DNA from: Naegleria gruberi
Taxonomy: Eukaryota
Strand: one strand, 5' to 3'
NCBI GenBank assembly: GCA_000004985.1
Contig: GG738906.1
Length of the DNA: 64,000 nucleotides
In this document: piece by piece, positions 1 to 42,505 of the stretch
Numbering within the stretch: the stretch's first letter is position 1
Layout: each line of letters opens with the position of its first letter
The notes under the pieces: model-generated
What the model was told of the DNA's origin: nothing
The model's input: the letters and a program-made list of their open reading frames with translations, nothing else
Databases searched by the model: none
Made by a program: the position numbers and the translations under genes

Positions 1-1143
1 AAATACATCGAAAAGACAGCAACCAGAGCAGTTTTTACAACTGGTAAAGGTTCTTCTGCAGTTGGTTTAACTGCATCTGTTAAAAAAGATCCAATTAATG
101 GAGAATGGACTTTGGAAGGAGGTGCTTTAGTGTTGGCAGATGAGGGAGTATGTATGATTGACGAATTTGATAAAATGAACGATCAGGACAGAACTTCTAT
201 ACACGAAGCTATGGAACAACAAAGTATTTCAATTTCAAAAGCTGGTATTGTAACTACTCTTCAAGCAAGATGTGCAGTTATTGCTGCAGCCAATCCAATT
301 AGAGGCAGATATGATCCCTCTAAAACATTCCATCAAAATGTGGAACTTTCAGAACCAATTTTATCACGTTTTGATATTTTATTTATTGTAAGAGATACTG
401 TCGATGAAAAGATAGATGAAAATCTTGCTAAATTTGTTGTAAATAGTCATTTCAATAGTCATCCTAAACAAACCCTGTTACGAAAGGTTCAAGAACAAGA
501 AGCAGCACGTAGAGAGCTATTAGAAGAAAAGAATGAAGCAACAGAAGAAGATTTTCTTTTCAATAAGGAAGGAATACCACAGGATATGTTTAAAAAATAT
601 TTAATGATGGCCAAGAGAATAAGACCGAACCTATCTGGTATAAACAAGGAAAGATTGACCAAATTTTATTCTGAACTGAGAAAACACTCTGAGGAAGGTA
701 GTGGTTTAACAATTACAGCAAGACATTTGGAGTCTATTATCAGAATGTCTGAGGCTAGTGCTAAAATGCATCTCAGATCCACCGTTAATGATAGTGACGT
801 GAATACTGCCATCTCTGTAATGCTTGAAAGCTTTATTTCTACACAAAAATACTCTGTAGCTGGTTCTCTTAAGAGAAAGTTCAAAAGATATCTTCAATCC
901 CCAACCGATGATCACCAATTATTACTGCATATTCTCAATGAAATGGTTAAAACAAAAATTTCTTCCATGGCTGATGAAGATGAGGAAGAAGAAGAATTAT
1001 CAATCTCAATTAAGGAATTCAAAAATGAGGTGGCCAAGAATAGAATATTTGACATTTCCACTTTCCTAGACAATGAGGAAGCACTTGCAAAGAAAGGATT
1101 TACAGTATCAGATGGAACAATATTTTGGAAACCCCAACAATAA
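1..1143 (+). CDS. MCM2: MCM2 DNA replication licensing factor, C-terminal part (5' end lies outside the window)
   Basis: Frame 1 is open from position 1. The translation KYIEKTATRAVFTTGKGSSAVGLTA...IDEFDKMNDQDRTSIHEAMEQQSISISKAGIVTTLQARCAVIAAANP...ILSRFDILFIVRDTVDEK matches the MCM2 AAA+ core almost residue for residue. Stop at 1141-1143. Confidence 0.9.
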   Translation, partial: KYIEKTATRAVFTTGKGSSAVGLTASVKKDPINGEWTLEGGALVLADEGVCMIDEFDKMNDQDRTSIHEAMEQQSISISKAGIVTTLQARCAVIAAANPIRGRYDPSKTFHQNVELSEPILSRFDILFIVRDTVDEKIDENLAKFVVNSHFNSHPKQTLLRKVQEQEAARRELLEEKNEATEEDFLFNKEGIPQDMFKKYLMMAKRIRPNLSGINKERLTKFYSELRKHSEEGSGLTITARHLESIIRMSEASAKMHLRSTVNDSDVNTAISVMLESFISTQKYSVAGSLKRKFKRYLQSPTDDHQLLLHILNEMVKTKISSMADEDEEEEELSISIKEFKNEVAKNRIFDISTFLDNEEALAKKGFTVSDGTIFWKPQQ

Positions 1144-1252
1144 ACTTCAAACTTTTACATTTATTAATCATGGGACATTAAGATATTTAAAATAATAACC
1201 CGCCACCCGCTGTGTTGCAACAGAGTAATTACCGTTAAAAAAAACAGACAAC

Positions 1253-3288
1253 ATGATTTCGGAAAGGGATGTTCGTGCTAAGGATCAACAAGAAAAAGGG
1301 AAAATGATGGTTTCTTTCCGAGAGGATAAGAATATCATGCATTCACCTCCAACAAGCTTAAATAATGAGAGTACAATTATCACTCCCCCTCAAAAATCCT
1401 CCAATCAATTAAATCAATTACCACCCACATCACCTTCAAGAAAGAATCATTTGAACATTAGTACCAGTATTAATAATTCATCACCATCACCCTCAAATGC
1501 ATCTCAACAATTCTTGGTCATTCAACAACAACAAAAATTGAAGGAAAAGGATTTAAGCTTGAAAACTAACTCACCTCTTCTTGGAAGTAGTATTATTACA
1601 TTTGACGAATTGATGGAATTTATAAAGAAGATTGTTGCTTTGAGTGACACAATCAAGGAAACAAAATTAAAAAAGAATGGATCTATCATTCATGTTAGAC
1701 TTTTAAATATTGAGGTAAGATTTATAATTGAACTTTTTTTACATTTTTGCATATTAAGGATGAAATAATTCACTGGGGAAAGGAACTTATTAAACAATCC
1801 AATGACAAACAAATAGGGAAGGCTCTTCAATTACTGTATCAACACCTGACAAAGGTTTTCTCTTTGCTATCAAAAATTCAAAGATGTAAATGGTTCATTG
1901 ATATGAGATTTTCGAAAAAAGCTAAAAAATTAACCGAAGAATTGGACAATGTTACAACCATACTTGGTGTTAGTATAACCTATTTCAAAGCTCAATCAGC
2001 TTATTCAAATGTGCATAAATTAGGAATTGTGTCTGGATATCCAGATATAGATATTTTCGATATGGATGACAAGAACAATTTAGCATTAGCAGCTGATAGA
2101 TTTTATATTGGTCATGGTGTAACTCAGAATTTTGAAATGGCTTTTAGATTATATCTTCATGCGGCACGTTTGGGAGAAGCTCGATCCCAATATGTGGTGG
2201 GAACAATGCTAATTGAAGGGGTTGGTGTTGAAAAAGATACAAGACAAGGTGTAAAATGGACTCTAAAATCAGCAGCCCAAGATTATCCAGATTCTCTAAA
2301 TCAAATGGGTATCTTTTATGAAAAAGGGTTTGTGGTGGAGGAGAATCCAACTTTTGCTGCAAAATTCTATCTAAGAGCTACACATATGGCACACTTGGAT
2401 GGAATGACAAATTATGCATCACTGCTCCTCCATGGAAATGGGGTTGAAAAGAATGAACAAAAGGCTGCTTGGTTATTGAGAAAAGCTTGTGAAAGAAATT
2501 ATGCCAAAGCACAAAATGAACTAGGTGTCATGTTTTACAAAGGATTAGGTATTGAAGAAAACCCAGATAAGGCAGTTGAACTGTTTACATTAAGTGCAGA
2601 CAGAGGTAATGTCTATGCTTTAAATAATCTTGGAATTGCCTACGAAGAAGGAAAGGGAGTAGTTAGAGATTATGCTAAGGCCACTCTTTGCTATGAAAAG
2701 TCCTCGAAACTGGGAAACATAAATGCACTTAACAATCTGGGATACATCAAGCTGCTTCAAAAGCAATATGACGAAGCATTAGAGCTTCTCCATCAAGCTG
2801 CTGATAGAGGAAGCATTGATGCCATGTACAATATTGGAAATGTATACAGGATAGGACTAGGTGTAAATGCAGAACCAAGCCTATCCTTAAAGTTTTTATA
2901 TCGAGCAGCCAACTTGGGCCACCATAAAGCTCAGAAACTTGTGGGTGATATTTTGTATTCTGGTGTTGGAGAAGCAATACCTTCCAATAGAAAAGAAGCT
3001 GCCTCGTTTTACTACAAAGCTGCTCTCAATGGAGATGCAGATGCATGCAACAATTTGGGAATAATGTATGAGGATGGAAGTAGTGGCGTTGAAAAGGATG
3101 AAGAAAAGGCAGTTCTATGGTTCAGAAAAGCATCTAATCTTGGTTCAGATAATGGAATGTTCAACTTGGCAGCCATTTATGAAAGAAGAAACAAGAAGGA
3201 AGAAGCAACAACACTACTCAGAAAAGCAAGCATGTTAGGAAACATTAAGGCTAGAGAAAGGGTTGGACCAGTCGCAGAAATAATTTAA
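1253..3288 (+). CDS. Sel1-repeat (TPR-like) protein with an S/N-rich N-terminus; join(1253..1714,1759..3288)
   Basis: Two ORF-track ORFs in different frames are joined by a 44-nt GTAAGA..AG intron (1715-1758), phase 0. Exon 2 holds about 10 tandem Sel1 repeats (motifs of the form A..W..KAA.QG.A.AQ..LG..Y..G.GV). Confidence 0.75.
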
Positions 3289-3338
3289 AAAGTGAAACTT
3301 TACAATGTACTCTTTAATGGATAATCATAATTTAAAAA

Positions 3339-4854
3339 ATGGAGAAAAGTGGGTGTTGTTGTGAAGGCACACTTTGCAAGAGAGGAAAAATAAAAAAATC
3401 GAATGATATTAGGTTGGATTACCTGAATGTGGATCCACAAATTCCGATACCACATTTTAAATTCTGGCCAGGAAATAATCCAATAGGATGCAACGGAAGA
3501 ATTGTTAATGGAAAAGATCAACTGAATTACGCAATTTCTTGGCTCTTGATATTAATTCCTTCTATTGGTTTTTTTTCGTTTGTGTACGTTTTTAATATTT
3601 TGAAAAACATATATGTAATGATTTCCGAATAACAAATTATCTAGTTGTGTGGATTATTTTAGATTTATTAGTATTTTCGCAGGAATACCAATTACATTGA
3701 TAGGATTAATTCTCTTTTTATTAATTGTTTTTTATTTGTATAAAGTTGGAACCATTGATCCAGGTTATTTACCTAAATCAAGCCAAGTTTATCAAGAAAA
3801 ATTCAAACACGATAGAAAACTATTGAGAAAATTAAGAAGAAAGGAGGGAGCTGTCATGTCATCTATAGAAGAATCGACTCTTCACTCTACGGAAGGTGAT
3901 GAAGATGATGGCACTGAAAAAGATGGTCTGAGTGATGAGGAAATGAGTGATGAGGACCCACTTGGAGGAAATAAGGAGGAACACTCTAGTGTTCCAGAAT
4001 TTAAAATAATTACTTTTAATGGTTGTCAAATCAAGCTGAAATATTGCAAAACTTGTAAAATATTTAGATTGCCAAGAGCTAGTCATTGCAGAAGATGCAA
4101 TAGTTGTGGTAAGTAATAGAAAAATGGATAATTAGACAAAAATAGTTTCTAGATTTGATCATCACTGCCCTTGGACTGGAACTTGTATTGGAGAACGAAA
4201 TTACAAATACTTTTACGGATTTTTATTCTTTTTGACAAGTGGAATAGTATATGCAGGAGTAGCTAGTTTAATTGAAATTATTTTATTTGTCTTCTTCGCA
4301 ACTCGAGAGAGTTCTAATTTGGAATATAGTAATGAAACAGTCCAAAAGGCAGTCTTACTTTGCCTCATGTCTTCCCCAGTTTCGTAAGTTGAGAGTCAAA
4401 GATAACATAATTCTAATATTTTAGATTTTTGATTGTTGTTTTTGCTGCCATAATGAGTCTATCTGTTGGTTCATTAGGTTGTTTTCATACCTATCTATCA
4501 TTCACAAACCAGACAACATACGAAAATGTAAGTTTATTCATTTCCATTCTAATTTGCAAATTCAAAAAGATCAATAGAGTTTACAACAAGACAGGAAATC
4601 CATTCAGCAAAGGCTTGCTTTCAAACCTAAAAGAAACTCTCTTTTATAAAGTACCTTTTAGTCAAGTGGCTCTAAATAAGAAGTACTCTATTGCTCAAAT
4701 TGATGCCATGCAACCTAATGAGTTAGTTGGAGAACCTAGTCATTCAGTACTCGAGCTTCAAATGGAAGCCGAAACAAGCCATGAAATAATCTCATCAGAG
4801 AATACTTCACTTGAATCCTCTTATCCTTACTACTCTCGGCAAGAAGTGGTATAA
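3339..4854 (+). CDS. DHHC-type protein S-acyltransferase; join(3339..3583,3645..4108,4146..4383,4425..4527,4570..4854)
   Basis: The zinc-finger motif [47 protein letters not shown] is restored only after removing a 37-nt GTAAGT intron. Introns 3 and 4 also begin with GTAAGT; the first exon's donor is GTACGT. The TTYE motif and the NPFSKG..N C-terminal motif are present. The fifth exon boundary is ambiguous because the 42-nt candidate intron is in frame. Confidence 0.75.
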
Positions 4855-4870
4855 TTATTTGAAATAAATT

Positions 4871-5812
4871 TTATATTGTCTTAATGCTATTGTAATGTTC
4901 ACCCAAGGCATAATATCTCTTGTGATAGGATACAAAAAGGATGGAGCTGCTTGGGTGAGGTGTCATTGAATTGTCTCCCATAAGTACAATTCCACTATCT
5001 TGCACAATTTTTAAAATGAATTGTTTACCACACAAGTCAAGAAAAGCTTGAATTTCCACTTGTCCTCCCCATTCACTACTAGATTCTACAATGTTCGCAT
5101 ATTCATCCATAGTTTCACAAACATCCATAACAAATGGAAAATATTCATCAGATTTTCTCCTCAATTGGTTAGCAATCAAACTTCTCAAATGAAGATATGT
5201 AAAAAGTCCATTAGAAGTGGTTAAACTTTTTAGCTCTCTCTTATTTTTTTCAGATAGCTCACTATTAGCTCTTTCCAATAATTGTTTGGTGAATGAATTA
5301 TTCAAATTGGTATTTAATTGATCAGCAAGAGATCTATATAAACAATGACCGTCGGAATCAATTTCAAAAATACTTTGATTTGGTTCCAAATATTGTTTGA
5401 TTCTTTCAATCTCAACATCTCTCTGTGTTACACCTCCACTATCCATAAATTCTTGATGTGCCTGTTGTCTGGCATCTGTTTGTTTTTGTACTTTTTTTTG
5501 TTTTTTTTTAGCATTTTTCAACTTTCGTTGTTCTGCCTTCTTCTTTTCCTCCCCGTCTTTGGATATTGTTTGTTTAGGTGTTGATTCTTTTTCATCCTCT
5601 TCATCATCAACAGTGGAAGACATTTTAGCTTCCCATAGTTCTGTCTCATGACGTTGTTCCACTTCCTTCAACTTTTCCTTCCACTTGTTTTCAAACTTTT
5701 TCTTTGTTGCAGCACCAGAGTTGGCAATTTTTTCAAACTCTTTAGCTTTTTCTTCTGCCAGATTTTGCAATTCCTGTTCATGGAGTGCTTCAAGTTCTTT
5801 AACTGACGACAT
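4871..5812 (-). CDS. OTU-domain deubiquitinase (OTUD6B-like: N-terminal coiled coil plus OTU domain)
   Basis: The Cys box IDSDGHCLYRSLADQL and a C-terminal His box (HYNS) are present, with a K/E-rich coiled-coil N-terminus. The ATG sits in an A-run. Confidence 0.8.
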   Translation of the reverse strand: MSSVKELEALHEQELQNLAEEKAKEFEKIANSGAATKKKFENKWKEKLKEVEQRHETELWEAKMSSTVDDEEDEKESTPKQTISKDGEEKKKAEQRKLKNAKKKQKKVQKQTDARQQAHQEFMDSGGVTQRDVEIERIKQYLEPNQSIFEIDSDGHCLYRSLADQLNTNLNNSFTKQLLERANSELSEKNKRELKSLTTSNGLFTYLHLRSLIANQLRRKSDEYFPFVMDVCETMDEYANIVESSSEWGGQVEIQAFLDLCGKQFILKIVQDSGIVLMGDNSMTPHPSSSILFVSYHKRYYALGEHYNSIKTI

Positions 5813-5921
5813 TTTTTTTGTATTTAAATGTAAAAAAACTAATTAAACAGACTATTCCGAAAAGTATTTTTAATTATTTATAATTAAAATTTTTATTATT
5901 AATAACCAAGTTAATTTCTTC

Positions 5922-6621
5922 TTATTGATTTAAAAAGTATGTATAATCTAATTCGAGAGTCTTTTTTGTTATTGCGAAAAAACCAACACTCAATTGTCCT
6001 CTGTGATGGGTTGCATGATTAAAAACATGAAACAGAGAATCGGAGAGATATTGTTCCATCAACTCATTAGTCGTAGAAAAATAGTGTATTTTCATTGATT
6101 CGAATACTTTTGGTTCATAATTAGTCAATATTGATTCAACAAATTCTTTCCACCTCTCACATTGCTTTAATAATAATTGACAAACCACTTCAGTATCTTC
6201 CACAACACTTGTCCACTCATTAGCTTGATCGTTACCCCAAAATTTGTGTAATTCATCTCTAGTAAATTTGAGTGTGTAATTTTGAGTTGAAATTTCTATC
6301 ATTGGATCCTCATTGGGTTGTTGTTCTGGTGATGAAGATGGTGTATATTTTAAACCAGAAACAACTCTATCAAACCATAACAGTTCCGCTAACAAGCAAT
6401 GAGTTAACACTGAATGCACATTTTTAAAGAAAAGTCCTTGAATTGGTTGTTTCCACAAATTAGTATCATTCTTTTCGTTTCGGATTTCATTTACAACACG
6501 TTGATAGGCCCACTCATGATATCTAAAAATTGTAATACAATTTAATAAACACTCCTTTATTTTTAGTATTACAATTTATTCCTTACCTAACAAAAGAATT
6601 GAGTTGTCTTGATAGACTCAT
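5922..6621 (-). CDS. DinB/YfiT-like (DinB_2 family) metal-dependent protein; join(6621..6587,6522..5922)
   Basis: The motif FHVFNHATHHRGQ is the His-triad signature of the bacterial DinB/YfiT family. A short first exon (MSLSRQLNSFVR) is joined by a 64-nt GTAAGG..TAG intron to ...YHEWAYQRVVNEIRNEK. Confidence 0.65.
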
Positions 6622-6826
6622 TTTTATTTTATTTATATTATTTTTTTATTCTAAAATACATACCAGTATACCGTGCATGTGGCGTTGTAATTTTATTAAT
6701 ATTTATTTTACAAGTTTTTAACAATCTTACTACAGTAAAAGGTTCTGGCATGCCATTGTTTCACCAATTTCACTTTTTTTGGCGTATAAAAACAATCTAA
6801 TAATAGCATTTTCCAACAAGAAAAAA

Positions 6827-8410
6827 ATGCCTTCTTCATCAACAGAAGGAAAGGACAGAAAAAAGAAAGACTCGTCCTCTTCAAAAAAGAAGGAATCAAA
6901 AGACAAATCAGAATCTAAAAAATCATCTTCCTCAAGTAAAACTAAAAGCACACCAAATACTACAACAACGTCAAAGGATAATGATGACGATTTTGAAGAA
7001 AAACAATTCGTCTTGAGAGTTCCCGAAGACATCGCAGAAAAAATCCGGGAACGTATTCGTAAAGAAAGTAAATCATCATCAGAGAAAGCTCAACGAGTAG
7101 GATTGGATATGAGCATCAAATTTGGTGACGATGTGGATGTTTTACAATTCCTGCAAGCAGCTAGATTGACAGAAGAAGATGTTAAAGTTAACACTGCAAG
7201 AAAAGAAGACCTAGCTAATGGGTACCTAAGTGATATCGAGTATGGTATTGATAAGAATAGAAGAGGAAGGTTTCAATTTGGTGACAAAATTCTTCCTTGT
7301 GTACTAGTAGATATGCCAACACATGTAGAGGCATATAAATCTATTGATTGCCAAACATATTACAAATGTGGAGATGTCAGCCAAATGATCCTTGTACAAA
7401 AACCATCTGATTTGGAAGCTGATATTCAAAAGTCAAGAGTTAAAAGAAACAAATGTTATCAAAAGAATTCGAATAACAAAACCCACCATCATCATCATCA
7501 TGATTCGAAAAAGAGAAAAACTAAGGACTTGTTAACAAGCTACCTCTTTGAAGATGGTCTTACTTCTCCGATGGAAAGAGTTTTAAGACATTGGAATTCT
7601 CAAAAATTGGAAATTACTAGAAAAGACATTAAAAAACTCAAGGAAAAATATATTCAAATGTTGGAAGAAGAGGATCCAACAAAAGTAAAGATTGAGTTTG
7701 TAGAATATGCTTCAGAGCAAGAGAGATTAGCAGCTTTGCACGAGGAAATGAGTAGCTCATCTTCATCTGATTCGAGTGAATCAGACGAAGACTCTGATGA
7801 TTCTGACAACCTTTTTGATGAATTGAGTGCTAACAGAAAAGATGTAGATAGTGTAAATGGTGACAATGGTACCAACAATCTAGGATCTTCAACACCACTC
7901 AGTCAAGGAAGCTCTAATCCACTAGGCTTTACACCATTCTCGAACACTCCAAACATTCCTAAACATAACCCTACATATATGAGTGAAGATAACATGTCTG
8001 ATGGAGGAGAATCTCAAATTTCTACAATGAGCAAACAGTCTTTGAAACAAAATCCAACACCAAGCCAAATTTCTGATCAGGAAATGAAAGATGAAGACTC
8101 AAGTTCAGAAGATGAATCAGATGACAATGATATGTTTGATGAGGTATCAGCAGCTCCCCAACCATCAGTAGATGTTCGCACAACTCCTCAATATCAAGAA
8201 TTAATTATGAAAAAAGAGTCCTGTGAAAGAATTATTTTTGAAAACGAGTCAAAAATCAAACTGGTGCAAACCAATATAGGAAAAGCTAAAAATGATATTC
8301 AAAAACAAAGAGCTAATGCTGCTATTGCTAGTCTTGGAGATATAGTACAAGATCACAAACAAAAACTTCAAGACATCATTAATGAAATGGATCAATTACT
8401 TCGAAGATAA
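6827..8410 (+). CDS. TAF7: TFIID subunit TAF7 (TAFII55)
   Basis: QFVLRVPEDIAEKIRERI...ILPCVLVDMPTHVEAYKSIDCQTYYKCGDVSQMILV matches the TAF7 N-terminal domain; there is a C-terminal coiled coil. The real ATG is at 6827 (aaaaaaATG); the ORF track starts upstream at a TTG. Confidence 0.8.
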   Translation: MPSSSTEGKDRKKKDSSSSKKKESKDKSESKKSSSSSKTKSTPNTTTTSKDNDDDFEEKQFVLRVPEDIAEKIRERIRKESKSSSEKAQRVGLDMSIKFGDDVDVLQFLQAARLTEEDVKVNTARKEDLANGYLSDIEYGIDKNRRGRFQFGDKILPCVLVDMPTHVEAYKSIDCQTYYKCGDVSQMILVQKPSDLEADIQKSRVKRNKCYQKNSNNKTHHHHHHDSKKRKTKDLLTSYLFEDGLTSPMERVLRHWNSQKLEITRKDIKKLKEKYIQMLEEEDPTKVKIEFVEYASEQERLAALHEEMSSSSSSDSSESDEDSDDSDNLFDELSANRKDVDSVNGDNGTNNLGSSTPLSQGSSNPLGFTPFSNTPNIPKHNPTYMSEDNMSDGGESQISTMSKQSLKQNPTPSQISDQEMKDEDSSSEDESDDNDMFDEVSAAPQPSVDVRTTPQYQELIMKKESCERIIFENESKIKLVQTNIGKAKNDIQKQRANAAIASLGDIVQDHKQKLQDIINEMDQLLRR

Positions 8411-8454
8411 AGTATTTAATTTTTTAATATTTTTGCGCAAAATCATTAAAAAAA

Positions 8455-10416
8455 ATGAAGAAACTCGCAAAAAGTGTACTGCTCCAATCTAAGGTTCTTC
8501 GTCATCAATATAACAAAGGACCAAAATTATGTGGCATTAGTAGTTTAAATAATTTTAAAACTTTTAGTTCAAACTCAGGAGTATTTAACAAAGAGAATGA
8601 TATTATTGAAAGTGATGAAATGGATGAGGATTTAAAACTTTCCCTCTTTGGTGATTCTAGAGGTTCTGATGAATCTAGTTCGAGGTCAAACTATGTTTCC
8701 AGATTGGGCAATGATACTAATGGTGTTTCCTATACAACATATCTTGAAAAAGACAAACACTTCCGAAGACTCACTGAAGAAGAAGTTTCAACTTTAAAAC
8801 AAAAATACAGTGATGTAATGAACCCTCCAACAATAATAACACAATATCCATTCGATTTGAAAACAACACAATCAACCAACTCTACTAAACCACTCGTTTC
8901 ACCTATTAACCATCACGAGTATTTTGCTGTTCTTGATAAAATCAATGCTAGAGTTCTTCAAAGAGGTACCACTGTCACTAAAGTTGGTGTAGCTGTGAGT
9001 GGAGGAGGTGATTCTATGGGTACTGCTATTCTTGTTAAAAAGTGGGCAGACTATTTGAAACAAAAAAAAGGTATCGATATGGAAGTGGTTGCTTTGATTG
9101 TTGACCATCAAATCAGAGAAGAATCAGAACATGAAATGTTATATGTTCATGAAGTGTTAACAAAAACAGTAGGGTACAAAAACGTATTTTGCTTCCAATG
9201 CTTATGGCCAGATAACCAAAAAAAACAACAAAGAATTGCTAGATTGAAGAGACAATTAATTATGTCAAGTGAATGTGTTTCTCAAAAAATTGATCTTCTC
9301 ATTTCAGGTCACCACAAACAAGACAATATCGAAACCATGATTCATAGAGTTGCCTTTTCGAGTGGAATTAATGGCCTTAATGGTATACCTTTGATTTACT
9401 CATATTGTGTAGCAGATGCCACAATAATGCTTGCAAGACCTGGCTTGGTATTTGATTGTAATGAACTTAAAGCAGTTTGTACTCAATACAATATCAAATG
9501 GGTTGAAGATCCAAAAAATAGTGATGAAAGAGAATTCAGATCAATTATTAGATCTAGGTTGGGACTTTTATATCAGTCTGGAGTATCACCTAGTAATTTT
9601 TATAATTTCTTATTGACATTGGGTGCCATTCGTCACATTATGCTTCGTGAATCACTTAACTTTTATAATAGGTATGTGAGGTTTGATGATGAATTGGGTT
9701 TTGCTGGAATTTATTTCTACAGTCTTGAAAAGACTGCCGAGTTTGTTGCTTCAAATGCTCTCAATTCATTAATACAATACGTTACAAATAGAGAATTTCC
9801 AGTAACATTGGGTTCTATTAAGAATGTTGTCAGATATTTACCATCAACGAAACGTTCTCTTGGTGGTTGCTTATTGGTTCCTGATAAGAAGGTTCTCTAT
9901 GTTATTCGTGATACTGGTCCTCTCAGAAGAAAAAAGAATCACACAACCATTAGATTCACTGATAAGGGCATTGTGTGGGATAATAGATTTTTCATTCAAA
10001 TTTTCCAATATAACAAAATGAATATTCCAGAGGAAAATATAACTTATTCAAAAAAGCTTAGCTTGGAAAAACAACCAGAGTATGATAATATTTTAATTCC
10101 AAATTATGATGGAAAGGTTGACACAGATCCAAATGGTATTTACAAAATTAGACCATTTACTGAAACTGACCATAAATACTTTGGTGAACATTATCCACTC
10201 ATGATGAAAGCTGCAAAGCAGTACCCTAATTATTTAACGAGAAGCTTCCCTGTTATTGAGGATAGTAAAGGTACTCTTGGTATTCCTTTCCTTGGTTGGA
10301 AGAGATGCGTCAACATTTTCTGGTACATTAAATTCCTTCCATCTCGTCAAAAGTTTGTGCCAGGTGAAGCTGACAGTTTGTACGATTTTGTTAAACTCTT
10401 TTCAAAGAATAAATAG
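8455..10416 (+). CDS. tRNA(Ile)-lysidine synthetase (TilS)-like PP-loop ATPase with an N-terminal organellar-type presequence
   Basis: PP-loop VAVSGGGDSMGTAIL plus the TilS signature LISGHHKQDNIETMIHR. The first ~45 aa (MKKLAKSVLLQSKVLRHQYNKGPKLCGISSLNNFKTFSS) are basic/hydroxylated and lack acidic residues. Confidence 0.7.
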   Translation: MKKLAKSVLLQSKVLRHQYNKGPKLCGISSLNNFKTFSSNSGVFNKENDIIESDEMDEDLKLSLFGDSRGSDESSSRSNYVSRLGNDTNGVSYTTYLEKDKHFRRLTEEEVSTLKQKYSDVMNPPTIITQYPFDLKTTQSTNSTKPLVSPINHHEYFAVLDKINARVLQRGTTVTKVGVAVSGGGDSMGTAILVKKWADYLKQKKGIDMEVVALIVDHQIREESEHEMLYVHEVLTKTVGYKNVFCFQCLWPDNQKKQQRIARLKRQLIMSSECVSQKIDLLISGHHKQDNIETMIHRVAFSSGINGLNGIPLIYSYCVADATIMLARPGLVFDCNELKAVCTQYNIKWVEDPKNSDEREFRSIIRSRLGLLYQSGVSPSNFYNFLLTLGAIRHIMLRESLNFYNRYVRFDDELGFAGIYFYSLEKTAEFVASNALNSLIQYVTNREFPVTLGSIKNVVRYLPSTKRSLGGCLLVPDKKVLYVIRDTGPLRRKKNHTTIRFTDKGIVWDNRFFIQIFQYNKMNIPEENITYSKKLSLEKQPEYDNILIPNYDGKVDTDPNGIYKIRPFTETDHKYFGEHYPLMMKAAKQYPNYLTRSFPVIEDSKGTLGIPFLGWKRCVNIFWYIKFLPSRQKFVPGEADSLYDFVKLFSKNK

Positions 10417-10596
10417 GTTTATTAGTGGTTTTTTAGTTGAATCAAAAATTCAATTCTGTTACTTTACAAAATCTGTTACAATTGTAAACTCGGTTGGCTT
10501 GATTGAGATTACTGAAAAGCCTTTTCAATTGATTAGTTTTGAAATTGAAGCGTTTCTGTTTGGGTATGATACAGTAAAATGACATGAGAACTTTGT

Positions 10597-40498: not shown

Positions 40499-42505
40499 AT
40501 GCAAAAATCTGTTGGTGTAGGAAGAAAAGTGTTGGTAACTTCCGGTTTAACAAGACTACTCCAACAACCAAAACATGCCAACTATTCAACCAATAGCAAA
40601 AGTTGTAATAGTAGATGGTTTGATCCTAAAGACTCACAACATATAACAACCCCGGTTGCTCTTTATAACACTCTCTCCAAGAGTAAAGTATCATTAAAAA
40701 TTGCTAAGCGATTATCGGATGTGCCAGTTATAAATTGGTATTCTTGTGGACCAACAGTTTATGATGATACACATTTGGGTCATGCTCGTAATTATGTTTG
40801 TCTTGACATTATTTATAGAATTTTAGCCCATTATTTTAACTATCCTGTATTACATGTTATGGGAATTACAGATGTTGATGATAAAATACTTAAAAGAGCA
40901 GCTGAGCTTGGAAAACAACCTTCGGAAATTTCTCGTAAATATGAATTTGATTTTATTGAGGATATGAAAAAATTGAATGTAATTCAACCTTATGTGTACA
41001 CAAGAGTAACAGAACACATTGAAGAAATTAAACAGTTTGTTGAAGAAATGGAAAAAAATGGTTTTACCTATACTACTGCAAATGGTGGTGTTTATTTCGA
41101 TTCTAAGAAGTTTGAACAAAATGATCATTACTATGGAAAACTTTCTCCAAATAATGCACAAGAATCAATTCAACAGGAACACATTGAACATAGGGAGGAG
41201 AAAAAGGATCCTAGAGATTTTGCACTTTGGAAATTCACATCTAGGGATTATTTGGGTTGGGAAAGCAAATGGGGATATGGTAGACCAGGATGGCATATTG
41301 AGTGTAGTGCCATGATTGACCATATTTTTAATAATAAGAGTGGTGCTGCAACTATTGATATTCACTCTGGTGGAATTGATTTGGCTTTTCCACATCATAA
41401 CAATGAAATAGCCCAGAGTGAAGCAAAGAATCATGCTCATTTTTGTTGCAGTAGAGAAACAAATTGGTGTAATTATTTTATTCATGTTGGACACTTACAC
41501 ATTAAGGGACTCAAAATGTCAAAATCTTTAAAAAATTTTATTACTATTAAGGACTTTTTGAAAAGGTATAGCCCAGACCAATTTAGAATATTCTGTTTGC
41601 TACATCAATATAATCAAACTTTGGATTATAATGAAGATGCCATTGGAGAAGCAATTAAGGTTGAAAAGAGAATACTTGATTTTTTACATAATGTTTCATT
41701 TTATAAGCAAGAATGTGAGGAAAGTAATACTATTATAAGAAAATGGAATACCGAGATTATCAATTATATGGAGAAACTAGCTATTTTAAAGCAAGAAATA
41801 CACAATGCTATTTGTGATGATTTTAATACTCCTACAATAATGTCAAAAATATGTGAAATAATTAACATTACTAATGCCCTTTTTTTCACAAATAACAATA
41901 TTCAAAAAGATTTCAAAGCTGCTGAACTTCTCGAAAACACCTCTTCATACATTATTAATTTATTAAATATGTTGGGATTACAGATATCAACCATCAAAAC
42001 AATCCCTTCTAAAATTGAATCAGAAGAACAGGTGGCTAACCATCCATTCACTTCTAGAATCATTGATACGCTAATGGAGTTTAGAGCTACAATAAGAAAA
42101 GAGGCTCTGCTCTCAGATCCAAAACAGACAAAAATCTTACAACTCATTGACGATTTGAGGGATCACAAGTTGAGAGAATTGGGTATAAGGATAGACGACA
42201 GAAGTGGAGAGAAAAGTGTTTGGAGGTTTGATGTCAGTAATCAAGATATTGGCTCAAATGTTGCCGACCATCACACCCTCAAATTAGCTCAGAGACAACA
42301 AGAGGTTGAACTAAAACTCTCCATTTCAGTTTCTGACTATTTCAAGAAAATACCCCAACACAAAGACAAGCATTATTCTCAATATGACCAAAACGGTATT
42401 CCCACACATGATGCTGAAGGACAACCACTCTCCAAGTCTGCTCTCAAAAAGTTACATAAGGAAGTAGAAAAACATGCAGAATTTTTAGCCAAACACAAAA
42501 ATTAA
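40499..42505 (+). CDS. Cysteinyl-tRNA synthetase (class I) with an N-terminal extension that may be a targeting peptide
   Basis: HIGH motif (DTHLGHARNYV), KMSKS motif (KMSKSLKNF) and the CysRS zinc-site context (WYSCGPTVYD...WHIEC). Confidence 0.9.
   Translation: MQKSVGVGRKVLVTSGLTRLLQQPKHANYSTNSKSCNSRWFDPKDSQHITTPVALYNTLSKSKVSLKIAKRLSDVPVINWYSCGPTVYDDTHLGHARNYVCLDIIYRILAHYFNYPVLHVMGITDVDDKILKRAAELGKQPSEISRKYEFDFIEDMKKLNVIQPYVYTRVTEHIEEIKQFVEEMEKNGFTYTTANGGVYFDSKKFEQNDHYYGKLSPNNAQESIQQEHIEHREEKKDPRDFALWKFTSRDYLGWESKWGYGRPGWHIECSAMIDHIFNNKSGAATIDIHSGGIDLAFPHHNNEIAQSEAKNHAHFCCSRETNWCNYFIHVGHLHIKGLKMSKSLKNFITIKDFLKRYSPDQFRIFCLLHQYNQTLDYNEDAIGEAIKVEKRILDFLHNVSFYKQECEESNTIIRKWNTEIINYMEKLAILKQEIHNAICDDFNTPTIMSKICEIINITNALFFTNNNIQKDFKAAELLENTSSYIINLLNMLGLQISTIKTIPSKIESEEQVANHPFTSRIIDTLMEFRATIRKEALLSDPKQTKILQLIDDLRDHKLRELGIRIDDRSGEKSVWRFDVSNQDIGSNVADHHTLKLAQRQQEVELKLSISVSDYFKKIPQHKDKHYSQYDQNGIPTHDAEGQPLSKSALKKLHKEVEKHAEFLAKHKN

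Follow-up and report, generated by a model that had tools for sequence, protein, structure and literature searches.

A nuclear gene of Naegleria gruberi for a lysidine synthetase that very probably serves a mitochondrial tRNA

A stretch of 64,000 nucleotides from Naegleria gruberi (NCBI GenBank assembly GCA_000004985.1, contig GG738906.1), referred to here in its whole length as the window, contains a gene for tRNA(Ile)-lysidine synthetase (TilS) at positions 8455 to 10416 on the + strand. This open reading frame (ORF) is very probably the nuclear gene for a mitochondrial TilS that acts on a CAU-anticodon tRNA encoded in mitochondrial DNA (mtDNA), so that the codon AUA is read as isoleucine. 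An initial annotation, made from the letters of the window, had proposed a nucleus-encoded TilS-like enzyme with an organellar presequence, imported to modify an organellar tRNA-Ile(CAU). That overall reading is now supported by the family to which the protein belongs, by the character of its N-terminus and by the presence of the substrate tRNA in mtDNAs of the Naegleria clade. The features of the gene and its product are given below with their coordinates in the window.

8455 to 10416, + strand: complete intronless TilS gene of Naegleria gruberi, defined by the ORF and by the 100% identity of residues 56-653 to P0001 / XP_002671324.1, the public model of the gene
8455 to 8619, + strand: 55 N-terminal codons in an open frame that reaches back to ATG 8455; they are missing from the public gene model, whose start is Met56 (window 8620)
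8455 to 8565, + strand: predicted mitochondrial presequence, residues 1-37, with putative cleavage after F37 (K-T-F|S-S), from composition and orthologue motifs
8731 to 8910, + strand: heterolobosean-specific conserved module, residues 93-152, before the catalytic domain (alignment A1; pLDDT ~97)
8983 to 9555, + strand: PP-loop ATP-pyrophosphatase (TilS N-terminal) domain, residues 177-367 (PF01171, 5e-29; TIGR02432, 106 bits)
8998 to 9015, + strand: PP-loop motif SGGGDS, residues 182-187, in near-invariant columns of a 120-sequence alignment
9556 to 10413, + strand: C-terminal tRNA-binding region, residues 368-653, comprising the TilS central domain and an enlarged C-terminal domain

Family identity of the protein

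Judged by its sequence and its modelled fold, the ORF product is a genuine TilS rather than a thiolase of the CTU1/NCS6/TtcA type, because the results from hidden Markov models (HMMs), PDB sequence searching, conserved alignment columns and fold comparison all point to TilS. The TilS-specific equivalog-domain model of NCBIfam, TIGR02432, matches the protein above its curated cut-off (106 bits versus 93.6), whereas the TtcA model reaches 22.7 bits against a cut-off of 272. The best HMM match is thus to TilS, the family named in the initial annotation. A model for full-length TilS of the E. coli type (NF007942) gives 34.6 bits against a cut-off of 606, and the PP-loop family PF01171 is the sole Pfam family found in the ORF. 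When the sequence is searched against the PDB, all significant matches are TilS proteins (3a2k, 1ni5 and 1wy5).

Identity is 15-19% to the solved TilS structures and ~25% to the nearest bacterial-type sequences. A profile made from four heterolobosean sequences and run against 1.8 billion representative proteins returned 13,627 relatives, among which TilS proteins of bacterial length (420-450 aa) align at profile positions 192-533, from the PP-loop domain through the central domain. Within the 120-sequence TilS alignment (A2), the window protein holds the consensus residue in 25 of 25 invariant or near-invariant columns and keeps the motifs SGGxDS, DH..R, H..D..ET, RP.L, D..N and R...R. Further along, the C-terminal region has the motifs TLxGC, WDxRF and TLPV in common with the closest bacterial-type TilS.

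An AlphaFold2 model built on the 120-sequence alignment covers residues 95-653 and is confident (pLDDT 92.5, pTM 0.90); an earlier structure prediction from 4 sequences had a pLDDT of 41. Compared with the PDB by Foldseek, the model places six TilS chains on top, with E values between 8e-16 and 2e-12 in alignments that extend to 524 columns, while the TtuA and NcsA thiolases come below all of the TilS chains at ~1e-8. The structural alignment takes in 364 of the 433 residues of E. coli TilS and includes the TilS-specific central domain.

These results bear on the alternative that the protein is a cytosolic PP-loop thiolase of the CTU1, NCS6, TtcA or TtuA type, mistaken for TilS by way of the common PP-loop domain. 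Such a mistake is very improbable, as TilS structures lead both fold searches, the alignment runs beyond the PP-loop domain through the central domain, and the TilS-specific motifs are conserved. In addition, the protein has been found in a mitochondrial fraction (PMC8134430). A thiolase of the CTU1/NCS6 type was rejected on the HMM and fold scores.

Gene and genomic setting

In the ORF list of the window, the TilS gene is a single uninterrupted frame of 653 codons plus a stop codon, running from the ATG at 8455 to the stop at 10414-10416. A protein search matched residues 56-653 over their full length to a 598-aa N. gruberi protein (P0001 / XP_002671324.1) on a 286-kb contig. NCBI names this protein 'predicted protein [Naegleria gruberi]', and UniRef gives it as tRNA(Ile)-lysidine synthetase. 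The ORF is flanked by eukaryotic genes, with a TAFII55/TAF7-like gene upstream and, downstream and on the opposite strand, a gene for an SMC protein of 1219 aa, and the G+C content is ~33% throughout the window, the TilS gene included. The gene is nuclear, as had been proposed from the start, on the evidence of its eukaryotic neighbours, its host base composition and the 286-kb N. gruberi scaffold.

Orthologues are found in N. fowleri (710 aa), N. lovaniensis (703 aa) and Willaertia magna (632 aa), and the nearest relatives in the profile search are the tilS product of the heterolobosean Acrasis kona and metagenomic eukaryote-like proteins. The gene is a single intronless ORF in both N. gruberi and N. 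fowleri. No synteny at the TilS locus was detected between N. gruberi (window 6779-14256, with the TAF7-like and SMC genes) and N. fowleri (L028, VFQX01000016.1), where the neighbours are inositol phosphatase and PI-PLC genes.

Another way to account for a TilS gene in this assembly would be contamination by bacterial DNA, or a horizontal transfer of recent date in which the gene had no organellar role. In its favor, the closest among the named relatives outside the eukaryotes is a TilS of the alphaproteobacterium Kiloniella, which is also the best BLAST match recorded for XP_002671324.1 (PMC8134430), and identity to bacterial-type TilS is just ~25%. The position between the TAF7-like and SMC genes on a scaffold of host composition argues otherwise, as do the orthologues in N. 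fowleri, N. lovaniensis, Willaertia magna and Acrasis kona, which include independent Naegleria assemblies. The gene carries N-terminal extensions of a eukaryotic type, and the N. gruberi protein is expressed and found in mitochondria (PMC8134430). Contamination or functionless transfer was rejected on genomic context, on orthologues in five heterolobosean genomes and on expression, and is considered extremely improbable.

Mitochondrial location, N-terminal extension and start codon

The mitochondrial location of TilS is already backed by a published proteome. A fractionation study of N. gruberi (Horvathova et al. 2021, PMC8134430) detected 4198 proteins and classed 946 of them as putatively mitochondrial. 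XP_002671324.1 belongs to the mitochondrial set (Supplementary Data 2, sheet 1), identified by 11 unique peptides at a coverage of 24.1%. Over fractions of rising mitochondrial enrichment, its log2 intensities run 23.3, 23.3 and 25.5, the signal being strongest in the densest and most mitochondria-rich fraction (PMC8134430). Its presence in this fraction lends support to the import that the initial annotation had expected, here into the mitochondrion. The same study lists a TargetP call of 'other' (94) for XP_002671324.1, because the model begins at Met56 and lacks the presequence supplied by the ORF of the window. A plastid was rejected as the target since Naegleria has none.

The initial annotation had described the N-terminal extension as basic and free of acidic residues, and this description is accurate. 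Asp and Glu are absent from residues 1-46, whose net charge is +8; acidic residues begin at number 47, and there are 8 Lys/Arg among the first 40 residues. Among the 29 ORFs of at least 200 aa in the window, only those for TilS and CysRS have a net charge of at least +7 together with a lack of acidic residues up to position 40. In the 4-sequence structure prediction (pLDDT 41), residues 2-14 are helical. Near residue 37, all three Naegleria sequences (N. gruberi, N. fowleri and N. lovaniensis) have the motif (R/K)-x-F-S-S, and similar R-x-F|S sites are visible in other N. gruberi mitochondrial proteins; cleavage of the presequence may take place after F37. Basic, Ser/Leu-rich extensions also begin the proteins of N. 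fowleri, N. lovaniensis, Willaertia, Acrasis and the metagenomic relatives. By its composition and by comparison with orthologues, the N-terminus looks like a mitochondrial presequence, in keeping with the organellar presequence originally suggested.

All of this presumes translation from the ATG at 8455, which is the first possible start because an in-frame stop codon lies upstream at 8425-8427. The alternative is that Met56 is the true start and there is no presequence, in which case the protein would be cytosolic with some other role or would be imported by an internal or non-canonical signal. The public model XP_002671324.1 begins at Met56, TargetP scored that model as 'other' (PMC8134430), and only 44 nt separate the stop codon of the upstream gene from ATG 8455, a very tight space for a promoter and 5' untranslated region. 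Set against these points, the 55 codons upstream of Met56 are open, for which the chance probability is ~0.013 at the base composition of the window. The upstream stretch has the composition typical of a presequence, whereas the N-terminus that starts from Met56 (MDEDLK...) has a strongly acidic character, as 7 of the first 40 residues are Asp/Glu. Basic extensions are present in all orthologue models, and the mitochondrial location found by experiment (PMC8134430) is simply explained by the longer form. Initiation at Met56, with import by another signal, is the only live alternative and a decidedly unlikely one; from the sequence, translation probably starts at ATG 8455.

Mitochondrial tRNA-Ile(CAU) and AUA codons

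Lysidine synthesis in the mitochondrion calls for a CAU-anticodon tRNA with isoleucine identity. Published counts of tRNA genes in Naegleria mtDNA range from 20 to 22. Mitochondrial sequences were collected by three routes. Pattern matching of DNA with a Naegleria COI primer from the literature gave four Naegleria-like mitochondrial contigs in metagenomes. A chimeric Atp1+Rps2 query led to an Atp1 cluster that holds N. gruberi NP_066500 and N. fowleri YP_007890021, and whose members led to a short N. gruberi contig (L012), to positions 1-16,902 of N. fowleri NC_021104 (L018) and to a 49-kb sequence (L021) that is ~95% identical to N. gruberi mtDNA over atp1. A second chimeric query (ORF482 + Nad9 + Rps2) yielded two more Naegleria-clade mtDNAs, L025 (on a contig of 50,231 nt) and L026.

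Each of L021, L025 and L026 has three tRNA genes with a CAU anticodon. The first, between trnH and trnF, has the pair A11-U24 as in initiators. The second combines U3-A70 with a pyrimidine11-purine24 pair, as in elongator tRNA-Met. The third is of the Ile type, marked by A3-U70 and C4-G69 pairs and by a CUCAUAA loop; it scores 59 bits on the Rfam tRNA model and sits in a trnK-CAU-trnR cluster between atp9 and nad9, at the following positions.

L021, 2041-2112: Ile-type CAU tRNA
L025, 12399-12470: Ile-type CAU tRNA
L026, 12169-12241: Ile-type CAU tRNA

In bacteria and organelles, A3 or U70 separates tRNA-Ile(CAU) from both Met types, and C4-G69 is frequent in tRNA-Ile(CAU) (Silva et al. 2006, PMC1635315). 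On this sequence rule, the third CAU tRNA carries the signature of tRNA-Ile(CAU). The same contigs encode trnI(GAU), and no trnI(UAU) occurs among the 21 tRNA genes seen across L021, L025 and L026, a total that equals the published number. A trnI(GAU) with an Ile-type CAU tRNA and without trnI(UAU) is the classical bacterial arrangement that requires TilS. The organellar tRNA-Ile(CAU) predicted by the initial annotation is thus present in three mtDNAs of the Naegleria clade.

The codons themselves fit this arrangement. Most AUA codons in the Naegleria genes cox1, atp1, nad1 and cox3 stand opposite ATT, ATA or ATC in alignments with other species, and few opposite ATG; therefore AUA is an isoleucine codon that needs a dedicated decoder. 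Over these four genes, 13 of the 152 Ile codons in L021 are ATA, versus 66 of 161 in N. fowleri (L018), a large shift between congeners in the use of a lysidine-dependent codon.

Several other observations concern these tRNAs. The Met-like and fMet-like CAU tRNAs have G37 (loops UUCAUGC and CUCAUGA; L021 1511-1584 and 13026-13097), and the same genes occur in L025, L026, L012 and L018. G37 is unusual in tRNAs that read codons starting with A, and among the CAU tRNAs only the Ile type has A37. In the Ile-type tRNA, acceptor positions 1-2 are mismatched in some species (A1.C72 and G2.U71 at L021 2041-2047; also L025 12399-12405) and paired in L026. Lysidinylation may follow or depend on 5' repair, because these mismatches fit the mitochondrial 5' tRNA editing that has been proposed for Naegleria (PMC4202320).

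Directly upstream of trnK in L021 (1890-1959) lies a weak tRNA, scored at 37.8 bits by Rfam and called 'Asn att' by ARAGORN, which has the look of a trnK duplicate in decay. In L026, trnK occurs as two intact genes, and trnI(GAU) is likewise present twice. Given the decayed trnK-like copy in L021 and the duplicate tRNAs in L026, tRNA duplication and decay seem common in Naegleria-clade mtDNAs. A tRNA-like relic homologous to trnI(CAU) is located in the cox1-cox11 spacer (L018 11516-11580; L003 6297-6370, - strand; L002 12234-12306, - strand). It retains the acceptor, D and T arms, with the anticodon arm deleted or swapped for an AT hairpin. An intact Ile-type CAU tRNA occupies the position of the relic in two more distant relatives (L007 15597-15671 and L010 18278-18349). 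The relic may survive as an RNA-processing signal.

Turning to the second presequence-like N-terminus in the window, the gene at 40499-42505 (+ strand) encodes a class-I CysRS (PF01406) of 668 aa. Its N-terminal extension of ~77 residues is free of acidic residues before position 42, the net charge over residues 1-40 is +7, and the enzyme is probably mitochondrial or dual-targeted. Since no trnC is present among the 21 mitochondrial tRNA genes seen, its mitochondrial tRNA would need to be imported.

Proposed mechanism and points against it

In the mechanism proposed here, TilS would be translated in the cytosol from ATG 8455, and a basic presequence of ~37 residues would take it to the mitochondrial matrix and then be removed. 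The mature protein, made up of the N-terminal module, the PP-loop domain and the C-terminal domains, would bind the CAU tRNA that mtDNA encodes in the trnK-trnI(CAU)-trnR cluster. In TilS chemistry, ATP is used to adenylate C2 of C34 and lysine is then substituted (PMC12069591, PMC4558845). The resulting lysidine at C34 would make the tRNA specific for AUA in place of AUG and have it charged with Ile in place of Met, after which mitochondrial AUA could be read as isoleucine.

A number of points weigh against this account. With regard to the protein, the Pfam and TIGRFAM models for the TilS substrate-binding and C-terminal domains (TilS_C, TIGR02433) have no match in it at E<=1. The presequence is a call from composition and orthologues, and in addition to the public start at Met56 and the narrow gap upstream of ATG 8455, the mass-spectrometry data are silent on which start codon is used (PMC8134430). 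As for the tRNA, trnI(CAU) was read in close relatives (95% identical) in place of the N. gruberi reference mtDNA (AF288092 / NC_002573), and the view of the mtDNA takes in all but ~10 kb of a ~50-kb genome. The Ile identity of the CAU tRNA is suggested by acceptor-stem rules that were derived from bacteria, and the lysidine chemistry on a Naegleria mitochondrial tRNA is itself reasoned from the established chemistry of TilS.

Domain organization

Two features set Naegleria TilS apart from bacterial TilS, the module at residues 93-152 and a long C-terminal region that lies outside the Pfam models TilS and TilS_C. Conservation in alignment A1 starts at the module, which is found in heterolobosean TilS and not in bacterial TilS; matches to bacterial TilS in the profile search set in only at profile position ~190. 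It is conceivable, if unlikely, that the heterolobosean mitochondrial enzyme has been structurally elaborated in this way to suit a 5'-edited substrate, or to discriminate the Ile-type tRNA from the G37 Met-type CAU tRNAs and the trnI(CAU) relic. Its product could on the same tentative view be ava2C, a lysidine derivative that has been reported in plant organelles.

Significance

A nucleus-encoded organellar TilS is of a known kind (PMC4558845), the N. gruberi protein has the UniRef label TilS and it appears in a published mitochondrial proteome (PMC8134430); the finding is essentially already known. A literature search found no paper that discusses the Naegleria TilS protein itself. The new details, all minor, are the correction of the start codon, a trnI(CAU) gene now identified and a degenerate copy of it. 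For annotation, they mean that XP_002671324.1 should gain 55 codons, which explains why targeting predictors miss a protein that is mitochondrial by proteomics, and that one of three 'tRNA-Met' genes in Naegleria mtDNA should become trnI(CAU). More broadly, Naegleria mitochondria would retain the bacterial way of reading AUA, through tRNA-Ile(CAU) and an imported TilS, as do those of jakobids, plants, fungi and sponges. Reading of AUA by way of TilS is to be expected of a gene-rich, bacteria-like mitochondrial genome. Since TilS is, to our knowledge, absent from humans, the orthologue in the pathogen N. fowleri may in principle offer a parasite-specific mitochondrial target.

Comparison with known systems

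The closest comparison is with the mitochondrial TilS homologues of fungi, sponges, placozoans and unicellular holozoans, which were inferred from their co-occurrence with mitochondrial trnI(CAU) (Pett & Lavrov 2015, PMC4558845). Like these, Naegleria has a nuclear gene of bacterial type, a mitochondrial trnI(CAU), AUA as an isoleucine codon and an import that is inferred. It differs from them in belonging to Discoba (Heterolobosea), in the module before the PP-loop domain and in the long C-terminal region. Naegleria TilS also has proteomic support for its mitochondrial location, whereas most of those homologues do not. Nucleus-encoded mitochondrial homologues of TilS are reportedly also the subject of work by Xavier et al. 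in 2012.

Among plastid enzymes, the apicoplast TilS of Plasmodium falciparum has been experimentally localised and is essential, and the chloroplast protein RSY3 has also been studied experimentally (PMC12069591). Naegleria TilS resembles both the apicoplast enzyme and Arabidopsis RSY3 in being nucleus-encoded and of bacterial type, with a long N-terminal targeting extension and an organelle tRNA-Ile(CAU) as its partner. Unlike Naegleria TilS, with its predicted mitochondrial presequence in an organism without a plastid, those enzymes are directed to a plastid by a bipartite or transit peptide.

Compared with the bacterial enzymes of known structure from Aquifex aeolicus (1wy5/2e21), E. coli (MesJ, 1ni5) and Geobacillus kaustophilus (3a2k), the Naegleria protein adds a presequence, a variable linker, the 60-residue module and an enlarged C-terminus. 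The relationship to CTU1/NCS6, TtcA and TtuA is more distant. They share with TilS the PP-loop ATP-pyrophosphatase fold and act on nucleotides of the tRNA anticodon loop; unlike TilS, they carry out sulfur transfer with Fe-S or Zn sites and are without the TilS central domain. On the side of the substrate, the nearest parallel comes from jakobids, which are close to Heterolobosea and whose mtDNAs encode a tRNA-Ile(CAU) presumed to carry lysidine.

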